Source: Myxococcota bacterium (lineage in GTDB: Bacteria > Myxococcota_A > UBA9160 > UBA6930). From it: a stretch of DNA of 64,000 bases. Positions 24,703 through 29,733 of this stretch are shown here, piece after piece. Under the pieces are notes generated by a model, which made no database searches, was not told where the DNA came from, and worked only from the letters and a program-made list of their open reading frames with translations. The DNA is taken from the NCBI GenBank assembly GCA_965223705.1, contig OZ245015.1, positions 480,001-544,000 of the forward strand, written 5' to 3'. Numbering within the stretch: position 1 is the stretch's first letter; the number at the start of each line of letters is the position of its first letter. The position numbers and the translations under genes were made by a program.

Positions 24703-25473
24703 GTGACCTCCGAAGAGCGAAATCGAGAAGCGCAGCTCGCCGATGCTTGGCGCCGCGCATCGCGCGTTTCGATCCTCACGGGAGCCGGCCTTTCCACGGC
24801 GTCGGGTATTCCCGATTTCCGCTCCCCAGGTGGGCGTTGGGAACGCTACCAGCCCGTTCCGCTCCCGGAGTTTCTCGAGAGCGAGACGTCTCGCGAAACG
24901 TATTGGGGCTACAAGCGCGAGACGTGGCCGGTCATCCAGGCCGCCGAGCCGAATCCCGCCCACGACGCACTGGCCTCACTCGGCCGAGCCGGGAAAATCG
25001 CGTTGTTGGTCACCCAGAACGTCGATGGTCTGCACGAACGCAGCGGGTTTCCGACAGACCGCCTGGTGAACATTCACGGCACCGACGCTCGGGTCCGGTG
25101 TTTGTCGTGCAGCGAGGGGTTCAGTCGGGAGGCGATTCAACATCGGCTCGAGGAAGGCGAGCGGGTCCCGCGGTGCGCGTGCGGAGGGTTGCTCAAACCC
25201 GAGACGATCTCCTTTGGACAAAGTCTCGTCGAAGACGATTTGCAACGCGCGTTCGAGGGCGCGGCGAAGTGCGACTTGTTCGTCGCCGTGGGAACGTCTC
25301 TGGTGGTCGGTCCGATCAACGCGATGTTTGACATCGCGGAGCGGGCGGGAGCCGAGACCGCGATCTTGACCGCGAGCGAGACACCTTTCGATGAGCGGGC
25401 GGGACACCGGCTCCACAGTCCACTCGAAACGGTGCTGCCGGCCTTGTGTGCCGGCGTTCTCGGAACGCACTAG
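24703..25473 (+). CDS. cobB: Sir2-family NAD-dependent protein deacylase (sirtuin)
   Basis: [43 protein letters not shown] zinc ligands, LKP...FG, GTSLVV. Confidence 0.93.
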
Positions 25474-25517: not shown

Positions 25518-25545
25518 TTGACTCCGTCGGTGGAATTCGTAACAT
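25518..25545 (+). promoter_or_regulatory. Putative sigma70-type promoter for the histone gene
   Basis: TTGACT-N16-TAACAT preceded by a T-rich tract, ~90 bp upstream of ATG 25634; RBS GAGGTAGGA. Confidence 0.5.
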
Positions 25546-25633
25546 CCGGCGGCCCGCAACGAACGGGATCGCGTTTCGCGGCTCGGCGGGTCCATCGAAA
25601 AGTTAAAACCGTTCACGGGGAAAGAGGTAGGAC

Positions 25634-25849
25634 ATGGCAGCACGAAGAAAGAAGACGACCCGCCGCCGCTCGTCGAAGCCGGCAGAGCTGATTATTTCGA
25701 AGGCTCGCACGAAGGCTTCCGTCAAGAAGTGCAACGTTGGCGCGGAATTCTACGAGGCCCTCGACAAGGTCGTCCGCGACATGATCAAGGGCGCCGAGGC
25801 GCGCGCGATCGGCAACAAGCGCAAGACGCTGAAAGCGGTCGATCTCTAG
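25634..25849 (+). CDS. Bacterial histone-fold protein with basic N-terminal tail
   Basis: Core ELIISKARTK...NVGAEFYEALDKVVRDMIKGAEARAIGNKRKTLKAVDL matches the short prokaryotic histone pattern (long alpha2, RKTxxxxD, truncated alpha3); strong RBS, own promoter and terminator. Confidence 0.88.
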   Translation: MAARRKKTTRRRSSKPAELIISKARTKASVKKCNVGAEFYEALDKVVRDMIKGAEARAIGNKRKTLKAVDL

Positions 25850-25870: not shown

Positions 25871-25920
25871 ACGATAAAAGGCGGCGCGGGTCAAAGCCCG
25901 CGCCGCCTTCGTCGTTTTTA
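25871..25920. terminator. Bidirectional intrinsic terminator hairpin between convergent genes
   Basis: 13-bp perfect stem aaggcggcgcggg / cccgcgccgcctt with A-tract before and T-tract after. Confidence 0.8.
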
Positions 25921-27081
25921 ACCGTCCTCTTGGTCTTCGAGGGGTTCCGTGAAATGCGCGGGAACGACGCTTCGGTCGAGGTTGGCTCCGACTCGGAACA
26001 GATGAACGAGGGAGACTCGCCGCGCGACCTCTTCGAGGCCGAGCCCGCGTCGCGCCGCCACGTACTCGAGGCCCGCGCTGGCAATGGTGAGCGCTTTGCG
26101 GAGTGCCGCGGGTAGCGTTTCGGCATCGCCCAGCGGAAGGCGGTCCGCCACCGCGACCCGGTTCGCAAGCGCAATCAGACGAAACAACGCCGCCTGCCTG
26201 TGTCCCTCGTCGAGTGCCTGCAAAGCGAGGAGCAAACTCGGGGTGTCCTCCCGCAGGTCCGGAAGCCGCGGGATCCACACCGGAAGGGACCAGGTTCCGA
26301 TCTCGTGTTCTTCTGGCACGAGATCCCACGTGTGCTCCGGGACGAGGGCGTAGATCTCCAGCGAGGTTTCCTCGTCGGGGAACCCGAGATCCTGCAAGCG
26401 CCCTTCTCTCCAACGCCGCGCCCACTCGCGGTTTTCCGTCGGAAGCTCCCACGACACGGCCTGCAACATGCGGAAATAGCGCCAGTAGTCCTTCTGGAAG
26501 AGGATCCGCAGGAACGTGGTCACGTCCGCAAGATCATCCTGCTCGCGCCGCGCGGTGTAGTAGAACTGACCGTCGAGACTTTGGGCCGCGTCCGGAACTT
26601 TCTCTTCGTCCTCTTTGGTTTTCATGAAGACGTCGACCCGGTCCGCTAGCCAGAGGTAGACGAGCTCGGGATCGAGTTCGTGGCTCACTCGGAGCGCGGC
26701 GTCCTCGCCGGAATTGACGAGTGCGACCATCCACTCGGAGAACTTTGTGGGATCGGGCTCCCGGATGCCCCACGTATCGAGATCCACGCACGCGACCCAC
26801 TGCTCCGGCGTCGCGATGCCGAGCAGCCAGCCGGCATCGTGGAGCCCGATCGCTTTGGCGGTAAAACAGAGCTCGGCTTCCGGCAGCAACGGGACCACGT
26901 TTTCGGGTTCATCGAGGAGACCGAGAAGTTCGGCACGCGCCGCAACCGGGGTTTCGCAGATCACGGCGACGCACTGATCCGCGTCGAGCGAATTCAGTGT
27001 CGCAGAGGCCGCCGCGCGGTCTCGCCGAGCGAGACGCAGCAGATCGCCAGACAGTTCCCGAGGCGCCGCAACGGGTTTCAT
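25918..27081 (-). CDS. Conserved hypothetical protein, DUF6178-like
   Basis: Acidic helical protein with DLDTW and WREGRLQDLGF motifs recalled from DUF6178 proteins; not verified by search. Confidence 0.6.
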   Translation of the reverse strand: MKPVAAPRELSGDLLRLARRDRAAASATLNSLDADQCVAVICETPVAARAELLGLLDEPENVVPLLPEAELCFTAKAIGLHDAGWLLGIATPEQWVACVDLDTWGIREPDPTKFSEWMVALVNSGEDAALRVSHELDPELVYLWLADRVDVFMKTKEDEEKVPDAAQSLDGQFYYTARREQDDLADVTTFLRILFQKDYWRYFRMLQAVSWELPTENREWARRWREGRLQDLGFPDEETSLEIYALVPEHTWDLVPEEHEIGTWSLPVWIPRLPDLREDTPSLLLALQALDEGHRQAALFRLIALANRVAVADRLPLGDAETLPAALRKALTIASAGLEYVAARRGLGLEEVARRVSLVHLFRVGANLDRSVVPAHFTEPLEDQEDG

Positions 27082-27158
27082 AGCCGCAATCTAGCGCGCG
27101 CGGCGTCAAAGCTATGATCCCTGTCCGTGATGTGTTCCGGACGAGGAGGCGGGCTCCC

Positions 27159-27764
27159 GTGATCAGGCTCCCCGAGATTCGAGGCGCGCTCCGGGCCAAG
27201 ACGCCCGCGGAGATGGATCCCGAGGGGCGCAACCAGGCGGCCGTGGCGATGGTTTTCCGCGACGAGCCCGAAGCGACCGAAGTGCTCTTCATCGAGCGCG
27301 CGAGCCATCCGGCGGATCCGTGGTCCGGCCACATGGCCTTTCCCGGCGGGCGTGTCGATCCGGTGGACGCATCCCTCCGGGCGGCCGCCGAGCGCGAGAC
27401 GCGGGAGGAAGTCGGTGTCGAGCTCCGCGGTGCCGAATATCTGGGACGGCTCGACGACATCGAGGGCTATCGGGGCGGTCGCAAAGTGGGCCTCGTGATC
27501 AGCGCGTTCGCGTACTACCACCCGGAGCCGGAAGAGCTCATCCCGTCCTACGAAGTCGCCGAGGCACTTTGGGTGCCGGTCTCACGGCTCTGGGATCCCA
27601 CGCACCGGGTCGATCATCACCACCAGGGGGCGGGGCCGTATCCGGGAATTCAGGTCAGCGAGTCGGCGAGCCACATCGTGTGGGGCCTCACGTACCGCTT
27701 CGTGCAGAACTTCCTCGACTCACTGGGCTTGGACCGCGCCGGAGGCGCCGGGCCGCATCCCTAG
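27159..27764 (+). CDS. Nudix hydrolase, CoA pyrophosphatase (NudL-like)
   Basis: AAVAM, IERA..WSGHMAFPGG, AAERETREEVG Nudix box, VWGLTYR; start uncertain (27114 or 27159). Confidence 0.88.
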   Translation: MIRLPEIRGALRAKTPAEMDPEGRNQAAVAMVFRDEPEATEVLFIERASHPADPWSGHMAFPGGRVDPVDASLRAAAERETREEVGVELRGAEYLGRLDDIEGYRGGRKVGLVISAFAYYHPEPEELIPSYEVAEALWVPVSRLWDPTHRVDHHHQGAGPYPGIQVSESASHIVWGLTYRFVQNFLDSLGLDRAGGAGPHP

Positions 27765-27949
27765 CGTTCGTTCGAATACCCCGCGCATTCTCGGACCGGA
27801 AGCTCGGGGTAGCGGCGAAAGGCCGGGTTCTCGTCGGCCAAGCCGCAGCGATAGAACGCACTGCCTCGCCGATTGCGGGTGATGCGGGCGTGTCGGCAAG
27901 CGGCGCACAAGCCCGCCGTGCCGTTTTCGTCGCGACTCGGTTTTCCCAC
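27761..27949 (-). CDS. Small four-cysteine protein
   Basis: GLCAACRHA...GSAFYRC...FRRYPELPVRECAGY; exactly fills the gap between neighbours. Confidence 0.6.
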   Translation of the reverse strand: MGKPSRDENGTAGLCAACRHARITRNRRGSAFYRCGLADENPAFRRYPELPVRECAGYSNER

Positions 27950-27973
27950 GCGGCGAGTCTACAATCCGCGACC

Positions 27974-28858
27974 ATGCCCCGCAGAGGACGCCGCGACCGA
28001 ATCGACCGAATCCTCGAGCTGACCGAGCGTCTGCTCGGCCGCCACGTGCCGGATCCCCCCGGAAAGGACGTCTTTCGAGACACGGCGGCGTTTCGCTGGG
28101 ATGCCCGGCGCGGGCTCGGCGCCCTTGTGCCGATCGCAGCGCCGCAAGGTTTTGATCTCGACGACTTGGTCGGCGTCGACCGCGCCCGGACGCGACTCCT
28201 CGACAACACGCGTCAGTTCTTGGCGGGCGTCCCTTCGAACCACGTCCTTCTCTACGGCGAACGCGGGACCGGGAAATCTTCGGCGGTGCGCGGCCTCCTG
28301 ACGCGCTTCGCGTCCGAGGGCTTGCGGCTCATCGAGCTCCACAAGAGCGATCTCGTCCATCTTCCCGAGGTGCTCGAAGCGATTCGCGGCGCGCCGTTCC
28401 GGTTCCTGTTGTTCTGCGATGACCTCTCCTTCGACGAGGGGGAGACGGGCTACCGCGAACTCAAGGCGGCATTGGAGGGAAGCCTCGAGGCACCACCCGA
28501 GAACGTGCGGATCATCGCCACCAGCAACCGCCGCTATCTCCTACCGCAGAAGCGCTCCGAGAACGCCGAAGTGCGGGTCGACGAAGACGGAGAGCTCCAT
28601 CCCGGCGAGGCCCTCGAAGAGAAGCTCGCGCTCGCCGATCGCTTCGGACTCGTGCTCGGTTTTTTCTCCTTCGACCAAGACACGTATCTGGCGATCGTCC
28701 GGCGCTACCTCGAGAAAGACGGCGGGCCCGAGCTCGACCCGGGGCTTCGGGAGGAAGCGCTGCGCTGGGCGCTCGATCGCTCGAGCCGATCCGGGCGCAC
28801 GGCGCGCCAATTCGTCGATGACGTTCTCGGCAGGGAGGCGCTCGCCGCCGAGCGCTAG
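27974..28858 (+). CDS. AAA+ ATP-binding protein, DUF815 family
   Basis: NHVLLYGERGTGKSS, FCDDLSF, LKAALEG, ATSNRR, EEKLALADRFGL, SGRTARQF. Confidence 0.92.
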   Translation: MPRRGRRDRIDRILELTERLLGRHVPDPPGKDVFRDTAAFRWDARRGLGALVPIAAPQGFDLDDLVGVDRARTRLLDNTRQFLAGVPSNHVLLYGERGTGKSSAVRGLLTRFASEGLRLIELHKSDLVHLPEVLEAIRGAPFRFLLFCDDLSFDEGETGYRELKAALEGSLEAPPENVRIIATSNRRYLLPQKRSENAEVRVDEDGELHPGEALEEKLALADRFGLVLGFFSFDQDTYLAIVRRYLEKDGGPELDPGLREEALRWALDRSSRSGRTARQFVDDVLGREALAAER

Positions 28859-29733
28859 TCGTCTCCGAGGGCGAAGCGCTTCACCGCTTCGGCGAACCCC
28901 TCGGGGTTGTCGGTCATGACGGAATGACTGGCGCGCCCGACGATCTCGAGCGTCCCGTTCGGCAACACCTCGACCATGCGATCCACCGTCTCGGCGGCGA
29001 GTACGTCTGAAGCGGCGCCCCGAATCACCAGGGTCGGGCAGGGAATCTTCTCGAGAGCCGCCCACAGCGTCGCCGTCATTTCCGCGGACCTCGCACGCTG
29101 CTCGTCTTCACTGAGCTCCGAGCGTCGGACATGAAATTTTCGATCGGTTTTGCGCTCGTAGCGCCCGTCGTCGCGCTTGCGCACACCGTGTTTCGCGAGA
29201 CGGCGAATGGTCTTTCGGCTCGAAGCGGGATAGGCCCGCGCCATGACATCCTCGAACTCCGCGACGGACGCGAAGCTTTCCTCTCGCTTTTGGTGGCGCT
29301 CGGTGTCGGTGCGAATCCGCGACGTTCCCCGCTCATCGAACTCCGGACCGGAATCGACGATCACGAGCCCGGCCATGCGGTCAGGGTGCTTCGCGGCAAA
29401 CAAGGTCGCGACGCGGCCGCCGAAGGAGTGGCCCACGAGAACGAAGCGGTCGATTCCCAGAGCAGCGGTGGCGCTTTCCAGATCCGCGACGTGATAGGGG
29501 TAGTCGTAACGGCCCTCGGCGTCGTGGGGCGAATCGCCGTGGCCTCGAAGGTCCAGGGCGAGCGTGCGGTAGTAGGGTGCGACTTCGGGAGCGAACTCCT
29601 CCCAGATGTGCGCGTCATTGCCGAAACCGTGGAGCATCAAGAAGGGAACCCCCTCCGCGCTCCAGACCAATCCATGCAGGATCAGGCCATCGGCTCCCGC
29701 GACTTGAATCGAAGTGGGTTCCGCGTTCATCAC
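28855..29733 (-). CDS. Alpha/beta hydrolase
   Basis: [18 protein letters not shown] nucleophile elbow, C-terminal His (ASHSV). Confidence 0.9.

Follow-up and report, generated by a model that had tools for sequence, protein, structure and literature searches.

Histones were recognized in bacteria only in 2023 to 2025, and a single bacterial face-to-face (FtF) histone, HLp of Leptospira perolatii, has been studied at the bench. FtF histones are defined by a predicted closed tetramer, and the Myxococcota are placed among the bacterial phyla rich in them (Schwab et al. 2024, PMC11390915). According to the same paper, the most conserved positions of the FtF HMM are 48, 52, 54, 56, and 61, which hold R, N, R, T, and D. 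R48 and N52 make the contact between dimers and are described there as absent from the "bacterial dimers" such as HBb (PMC11390915). HLp is a stable tetramer that wraps ~60 bp (Hu et al. 2025, PMC12701072). The archaeal FtF histone HTkC of T. kodakarensis, solved as 9F2C, forms a torus tetramer (PMC11390915), and Bd0055 (HBb) of Bdellovibrio is reported as a DNA-bending dimer (PMC12701072). Schwab et al. describe most bacterial FtF histones as carrying positively charged tails, which they term "H3-like," and archaeal FtF histones as generally lacking tails (PMC11390915). A full-text search of the literature for at least two of FtF histones, Myxococcota, and tails listed no further FtF-histone paper beyond that one, its preprint, and PMC12701072.

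Like the histone described here, other nucleoid proteins combine a small DNA-binding core with a low-complexity basic extension, believed to increase DNA affinity and compaction. Lys-rich tails are carried by Hc1 of Chlamydia and by HU of Deinococcus. Mycobacterial MDP1 likewise has a Lys-rich disordered tail (PMC5974015). Unlike the present protein, these have HU or H1-like core folds, and their tails are usually longer and often C-terminal.

The gene that we describe lies in the window, by which we mean the whole 64,000-nucleotide stretch of DNA that was analyzed. The features of its immediate surroundings are as follows.

24703 to 25473, plus strand: Sir2-family NAD-dependent deacylase (Pfam PF02146, E 4e-40), 160 nt upstream of the histone gene
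25518 to 25545, plus strand: sigma-70-like promoter TTGACT-16-TAACAT, 9/12 matches
25546 to 25633, plus strand: leader of ~88 nt with the Shine-Dalgarno sequence AAGAGG at 25622 to 25627, read from the sequence
25634 to 25681, plus strand: basic tail, predicted to be disordered, residues 1 to 16 (MAARRKKTTRRRSSKP), from pLDDT and a comparison of loci
25682 to 25849, plus strand: alpha3-truncated histone fold, residues 17 to 71 plus the stop codon, from the profile, AlphaFold2, Foldseek, and a four-copy model
25878 to 25919, no strand assigned: G+C-rich hairpin and T-run, with a stem at 25878 to 25909 (14 pairs, 11 of them G-C) followed by CGTCGTTTTT
25918 to 27081, minus strand: DUF6178 protein, convergent and downstream (Pfam PF19676, E 5e-64)

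The open reading frame at 25634 to 25849 (plus strand) is a real and correctly delimited gene. It encodes 71 amino acids, reads MAARRKKTTRRRSSKPAELIISK...GNKRKTLKAVDL in the sequence and its translation, and is identical to the frame quoted in a preliminary description of this DNA. The ORF stands out from chance, with E ≤ 0.01 for 1625 of 1626 candidate proteins of similar length. Many of these candidate relatives carry the JGI label "histone H3/H4," and the named examples come from metagenome-assembled genomes of Myxococcota or "Deltaproteobacteria." An exhaustive phmmer scan gave 106 cluster representatives at E ≤ 0.001. In species-representative genomes, tblastn confirmed 460 relatives out of 529 pattern matches; the pattern was taken from a closer alignment, A2, since the diverse alignment, A1, held no sufficiently conserved stretch. 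For the comparison of loci we used a set of 81, the window and 80 relatives, which are kin and not independent. The histone gene is single copy in this genome.

The start codon is equally clear. From the upstream stop to the fold, the frame contains no ATG, GTG, or TTG besides the ATG at 25634, and the next in-frame ATG encodes M50, within alpha2. Because there is no alternative in-frame start before the fold, the tail belongs to the protein unless a noncanonical start is used. The Shine-Dalgarno sequence AAGAGG lies 6 nt upstream of the ATG, and a Shine-Dalgarno-like motif at −18 to −4 is found in 81/81 loci, compared with 22% of random 15-mers. The preliminary description had allowed for a true start downstream of the tail; the ATG upstream of the tail and the motif in every locus speak against it. 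Several candidate starts are present in 55 listed loci, and the window locus (L001) is not one of them.

We looked across the sampled genomes of the phylum with a profile, A1, built from 45 diverse family members. Of 57 further genomes sampled from this class, 56 carried the histone gene at E ≤ 1e-5, and the exception was a 99%-complete genome in 820 contigs. In the rest of the phylum, 29/243 genomes had a match, with far weaker scores. The histone is thus conserved throughout its class of uncultured Myxococcota. In a sister family (f5; for example, G073, G098, G148, and G233), many genomes have two or three matches to the profile, one strong (E ~1e-30) and one or two weak (1e-6 to 1e-9). We take the weak ones, found alongside a strong one, to be diverged paralogues.

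Searches of Pfam-A and NCBIfam with the single protein gave no usable match, and against solved chains the single sequence alone reached only E 0.015, to 9F2C. Profile A1 gave the following matches.

HTkC of T. kodakarensis (9F2C), archaeal FtF histone: E 2.1e-15, 60.1 bits
HLp of L. perolatii (9QT0), bacterial FtF histone: E 4.6e-12, 49.4 bits
HBb/Bd0055 (8CMP and 8FVX), Bdellovibrio dimer histone: E 1e-9 and 4e-9, 41.7 and 39.9 bits
NF-YB, HMfA/B, and H2B, classical histone folds: E 0.04 to ~1

An AlphaFold2 model made on the A1 alignment (mean pLDDT 81.8) places alpha1 at residues 23 to 29, alpha2 at 37 to 60, and a one-turn alpha3 at 68 to 70. The best eight Foldseek rows for this model are chains of HTkC, HLp, and HBb, with an rmsd of 1.2 to 1.9 Å and target-normalized TM scores of 0.77 to 0.87; the Foldseek E-values all exceed 0.001 because the domain is so short (~55 residues). 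Judged by profile and predicted structure, the protein is a genuine alpha3-truncated histone. The preliminary description had proposed a histone fold from the pattern RKTxxxxD, the length of alpha2, and the truncation of alpha3, and the profile, the AlphaFold model, and Foldseek bear this out.

We then compared the C-terminal half of the fold with the published FtF positions. R57, N61, R63, T65, and D70 are spaced +4, +2, +2, and +5, identical to HMM positions 48, 52, 54, 56, and 61. Among the 45 diverse relatives, N61, T65, and D70 are invariant, with R57 and R63 conserved to 90% or more. The RxTxxxxD motif is present as R63-K64-T65...D70, the protein terminates one residue past D70, and the model, with an alpha3 of 3 residues behind an alpha2 at 37 to 60, agrees with the FtF fold, in which alpha3 is reduced to 3 or 4 residues and alpha2 is shortened. 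A model of four copies scored 0.86 against 0.00 for the best control; the 0.86 mark was attained by 20/30 proteins solved as one-chain pairs and by 1/23 solved as single chains. Contacts in the four-copy model agree between runs to at least 96%, with a partner pLDDT of 80 or more. In addition to the handshake dimer, the model contains a second interface formed by residues 56 and 57, 60 and 61, 63, and 69 and 70, and the tetramer interface is modeled with an expected error below 8 Å. Similar tetramers (9F2C and 9QT0) have already been solved, so the success of the model may be memory, and we take it as likeness and not as proof for this copy. Every FtF feature open to testing on sequence or models is seen in this protein, and the features that define the Bd0055 group are not.

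HLp (PDB 9QT0 to 9QT2) is the closest bacterial parallel. Like the window protein, it is an alpha3-truncated histone of ~65 to 70 amino acids with the C-terminal motif R...N.R.T....D, it ends one residue past the Asp, and it is encoded by a stand-alone gene. It forms a tetramer via the same region that is modeled here, and its target-normalized TM score is 0.85 to 0.87. The two differ in that they share 23% identity in the structural alignment, and the tail of the window protein is longer and more regular. Leptospira is reported to have no HU (PMC12701072), whereas two HU/IHF-family genes are encoded in this genome, and the Leptospira gene has SMC and MAP neighbors (PMC12701072), in contrast to Sir2 and DUF6178 here. 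HTkC is the best solved match by both profile and fold, with 33% identity and an rmsd of 1.2 Å. It differs in being archaeal and 59 amino acids long, in having Glu where the family has the invariant N61, and in its N terminus: the profile alignment begins at its residue 4, so that it is without an N-terminal extension. Bd0055/HBb (PDB 8CMP, 8FVX, and 9EZZ) is bacterial and shares the alpha3-truncated fold and the RKT....D motif, but it is without a basic tail and differs at the positions of R57 and N61, as discussed below.

The tail of the window protein contains 8 Lys/Arg (R4, R5, K6, K7, R10, R11, R12, and K15) and 4 Ser/Thr (T8, T9, S13, and S14) in 16 residues, the same counts as in the preliminary description. 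It is predicted to be disordered, with a mean pLDDT of 53 to 62 over the first 20 residues in the AlphaFold2 model, and its residues are in none of the interfaces of the four-copy model. A disordered basic N-terminal extension of this kind is a feature of eukaryote-type tails. The preliminary description held that most short prokaryotic histones lack tails and suggested a survey of homologues. The former is mistaken for bacteria, where most FtF histones carry positively charged tails (PMC11390915), and the survey found a tail in 81/81 loci. Since tails on most bacterial FtF histones have already been published, the one described here is expected and not exceptional.

Across the 81 loci the tail begins with MAA[RK][RK]K in every case, behind the Shine-Dalgarno-like motif, and within the class its end, K-P-[AV]-E, is also conserved. 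Measured up to the [LM]IISK core, the tails are 9 to 21 residues long (median, 17) and hold 3 to 10 Lys/Arg (median, 7), with one acidic residue per tail, at the junction with the fold. They contain between 0 and 4 Ser/Thr and none in 38/81, so the four Ser/Thr of the window copy are not a family feature. We did not find this class-specific motif, with its MAA[RK][RK]K start and K-P-[AV]-E end, stated in print; Supplementary Figs 13, 19, and 20 of PMC11390915, which depict bacterial tails, may include it.

The basic residues themselves vary in an ordered way. The Arg share of the basic residues in the tail increases with the G+C content of the locus (rho 0.55, among loci that are kin and not independent), which fits selection for charge. 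Single positions depart from this. Position 4 is Lys in 27 and Arg in 52 of the 81 loci counted, while position 6 is Lys in 76 and Arg in 3 (80 counted), position 7 is Lys in 57 and Arg in 1 (80 counted), and the position before Pro (K15 here) is Lys in 54 and Arg in 0 (81 counted). This position-specific pattern persists in the 65 loci with a G+C content of at least 62%. Where G+C reaches 62 to 76%, the positions of K6, K7, and K15 stay Lys and the neighboring basic positions have drifted to Arg. Such lysine-specific retention is the sole detail of the sequences that hints at something beyond bulk charge.

The wider family shows more variation at the N terminus. Some relatives are tail-less, including 56-amino-acid forms such as P0148. 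Others are tandem doublets (pseudodimers) that have a short Gly/Pro/Ser linker and no basic tail, namely, P0001 (125 amino acids) and the frame at G188:C50:163422-163784 (minus strand); these doublets are 73% identical to the window protein. In G188, a 2.8-Mb genome of the same family as that of the window, two profile matches fall within one 167-amino-acid frame. The existence of tail-less doublets means that the tail is not indispensable to the function of the fold. More distant relatives (P0144, P0153, P0158, P0162, and P0172) have Lys-rich tails of ~30 to 45 residues with KKA/KKT-like repeats, so that tails differ greatly in length over the wider family.

On the downstream side the gene has a conserved neighborhood, with DUF6178 present in 68, NUDIX in 63, and DUF815 in 32 of the 80 related loci. 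The block encoding DUF6178, NUDIX, and a DUF815 AAA-type ATPase lies beside the histone gene in the class (positions 25918 to 29733 in the window; loci L003 to L082). The DUF6178 proteins of the class match only model positions 1 to ~351 of 561 and thus represent a short form. We rejected DUF6178 as a functional partner: the family is phylum-wide (199/301 genomes), the histone is missing from most of the genomes that have it, and we read the position of DUF6178 as class-level synteny. Upstream, 16/80 related loci have a Sir2 homologue on the same strand at a distance of up to 5 kb; it is adjacent in 5 of them, and an alpha/beta-hydrolase gene intervenes in the other 11. The proximity of Sir2 and histone genes is suggestive but looks like lineage synteny.

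The histone gene is a monocistronic unit. The preliminary description listed a promoter-like site, a ribosome-binding site, and a terminator of its own, all of which we found again as TTGACT-16-TAACAT, AAGAGG, and the 14-pair hairpin. One sigma-70-like site occurs in the region, compared with a mean of 0.1 in 50 shuffles. In 52/81 loci a related site (TTGACN-N16-18-TANNNT) precedes the histone ATG by no more than 200 nt (median distance, 98 nt), compared with a background of 1.6% in random 200-nt windows from the same loci. Going by these sequence patterns, the family has kept a promoter of its own together with a long leader. In the window, the leader has no excess of RNA structure over shuffles (z +1.12) and no Rfam match near the gathering score. 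No consensus pairs emerged from 14 aligned upstream regions, a weak test because the coordinates of several loci were offset from the true ATG. Downstream, the hairpin region adjoins the stop codon of the convergent gene, and an AAAA just upstream of the stem would yield a U-run on the minus strand. The hairpin is therefore probably a two-way terminator common to the histone and DUF6178 genes. Among the relatives, 20/80 had a downstream terminator by a crude criterion that is too rough for use.

The preliminary description also took the histone to be strongly expressed, a claim for which we found no support. The codon adaptation index (CAI) of the gene is 0.67, at the 77th percentile of 2851 filtered ORFs and the 57th of size-matched windows. 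The weights were derived from 12 genes for translation and transcription in the neighborhood of L16, which was identified by Pfam; the others were recognized by eye. These reference genes score 0.62 to 0.75 against a background median of 0.64, and since the reference set barely differs from the genome, the CAI is uninformative on expression here. A marine metatranscriptome run (X1), located using the histone gene, contains three contigs of 102, 171, and 137 nt that cover 25561 to 25840 with 2, 7, and 13 differences. These are sequences of relatives, and as contigs they cannot show level, strand, or ends. DNA may be present in that library, so these contigs do not prove transcription of the histone, and the missing cover of the neighbors proves nothing. 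Runs X2, X3, and X5 contain near-identical DNA; X2 and X3 are possibly the source of the assembly. High expression of the histone is plausible by analogy with the FtF histone of L. interrogans, which Schwab et al. report in the top 2% of transcripts (PMC11390915).

Taking these results together, we consider it highly probable that the histone is a small nucleoid-associated protein of the FtF type. The most likely mode of action, by analogy with the studied members, is that of an FtF tetramer that wraps DNA nonspecifically, its basic tail adding electrostatic contacts. Two chains would form a histone handshake dimer, and two dimers would close into a tetramer via the last part of alpha2 and the short alpha3, with R57, N61, R63, D70, and the free C terminus at the contact. 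In the cell, such a tetramer would bind DNA without sequence preference and wrap ~60 bp, as HLp of L. perolatii does. The disordered 16-residue tail, rich in Lys/Arg and lying outside the interfaces, would add nonspecific electrostatic contacts with DNA, leading to higher affinity, charge neutralization, and compaction. The histone would act beside HU/IHF and would not replace them.

The preliminary description named both the FtF histones and Bdellovibrio Bd0055 as relatives of this protein. A histone of the Bd0055/HBb "bacterial dimer" type would stay a dimer and would bend DNA or coat it end-on without wrapping. HBb is indeed significant in the profile (E 1e-9) and in structure (target-normalized TM, 0.77), the Lys of RKTxxxxD is noted for bacterial dimers and not strongly conserved in the FtF profile, and bacterial dimers are placed in "Myxococcota_A" (PMC11390915). 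The FtF structures nevertheless score 60 and 49 bits against 42 for HBb. R57 and N61 are present and conserved in the family, while their equivalents R48 and N52 are missing from bacterial dimers as described in PMC11390915, and HBb aligned to the family profile has Ser and Asp where R57 and N61 stand. It is precisely on R57 and N61, moreover, that the modeled tetramer contact sits. We therefore regard a dimer of the Bd0055 type as decidedly improbable; of the two relatives named earlier, the FtF type holds, on R57/N61 and the predicted tetramer, and Bd0055 does not.

Within the FtF reading, the tail could do more than neutralize charge. It might be a platform for regulated modification, an idea already in the preliminary description, which named acetylation, methylation, and phosphorylation sites. 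Its lysines would then be acetylated, deacetylated by the adjacent Sir2 enzyme, or methylated so as to tune chromatin, in addition to binding DNA. The specific retention of Lys at positions 6 and 7 and before Pro points this way, as do the Sir2 gene directly upstream and the presence in this genome of a SET-domain gene (G000:C1:2207611-2207895, plus strand; locus L085; 49.7 bits, above the Pfam cutoff). Linkage to a dedicated writer or eraser is not seen, however. No sirtuin lies in the 5-kb flank of 64/80 loci, and the gene that intervenes in 11 of the 16 sirtuin loci makes the arrangement resemble lineage synteny. SET genes occur in 97/301 sampled genomes of the phylum: in 28/57 genomes of the class, compared with 56/57 for the histone, and in 68/243 elsewhere in the phylum; the 8 other family members yielded none. 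We rejected the SET-domain methyltransferase as a linked tail writer, since it is not codistributed with the histone. The 38/81 tails without Ser/Thr and the rise of Arg with G+C, expected if charge is selected, also argue against such a platform, and we think it unlikely. Its specific form, in which lysines 6, 7, and 15 are candidates for reversible acylation with the Sir2 enzyme as eraser, is very unlikely. A different view is that the conserved MAARKK start mainly reflects selection on the mRNA, for an A-rich, unstructured start in a G+C-rich genome, and that the basic residues have little function in the protein. Codons 2 to 6 end in A/T in 179/405 cases (0.44); the share drops to 0.22 over the remaining tail codons and to 0.15 in the core. 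GCA accounts for 83/160 early Ala codons versus 123/870 later ones, and CGA plus AGA account for 40/74 early Arg codons versus 37/423 later ones. A bias of this kind usually marks an unstructured translation start, and the first residues may be conserved in part for the sake of the mRNA rather than the protein. The basic character nevertheless spans the whole 9- to 21-residue tail, past codon 6 the codons mostly end in G/C, and Lys/Arg swaps preserve net charge; distant bacterial FtF histones are also described with basic tails (PMC11390915). As the main explanation, selection on the mRNA has scarcely any probability, and we retain the FtF tetramer with a DNA-contacting tail.

The histone falls within the published class and confirms the known picture without changing it. 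The new details are the Lys-specific tail positions 6, 7, and 15 and the sirtuin gene upstream in 16/80 loci. If tail acylation were true, bacteria would have evolved, independently of eukaryotes, a counterpart of histone-tail regulation. Among uncultured, largely marine Myxococcota this family makes up the main FtF clade, and since nearly all sampled genomes of the class keep it, it probably serves there as a core chromatin protein beside HU. The window histone is a convenient natural case in which the contribution of a basic tail to a prokaryotic histone can be studied.
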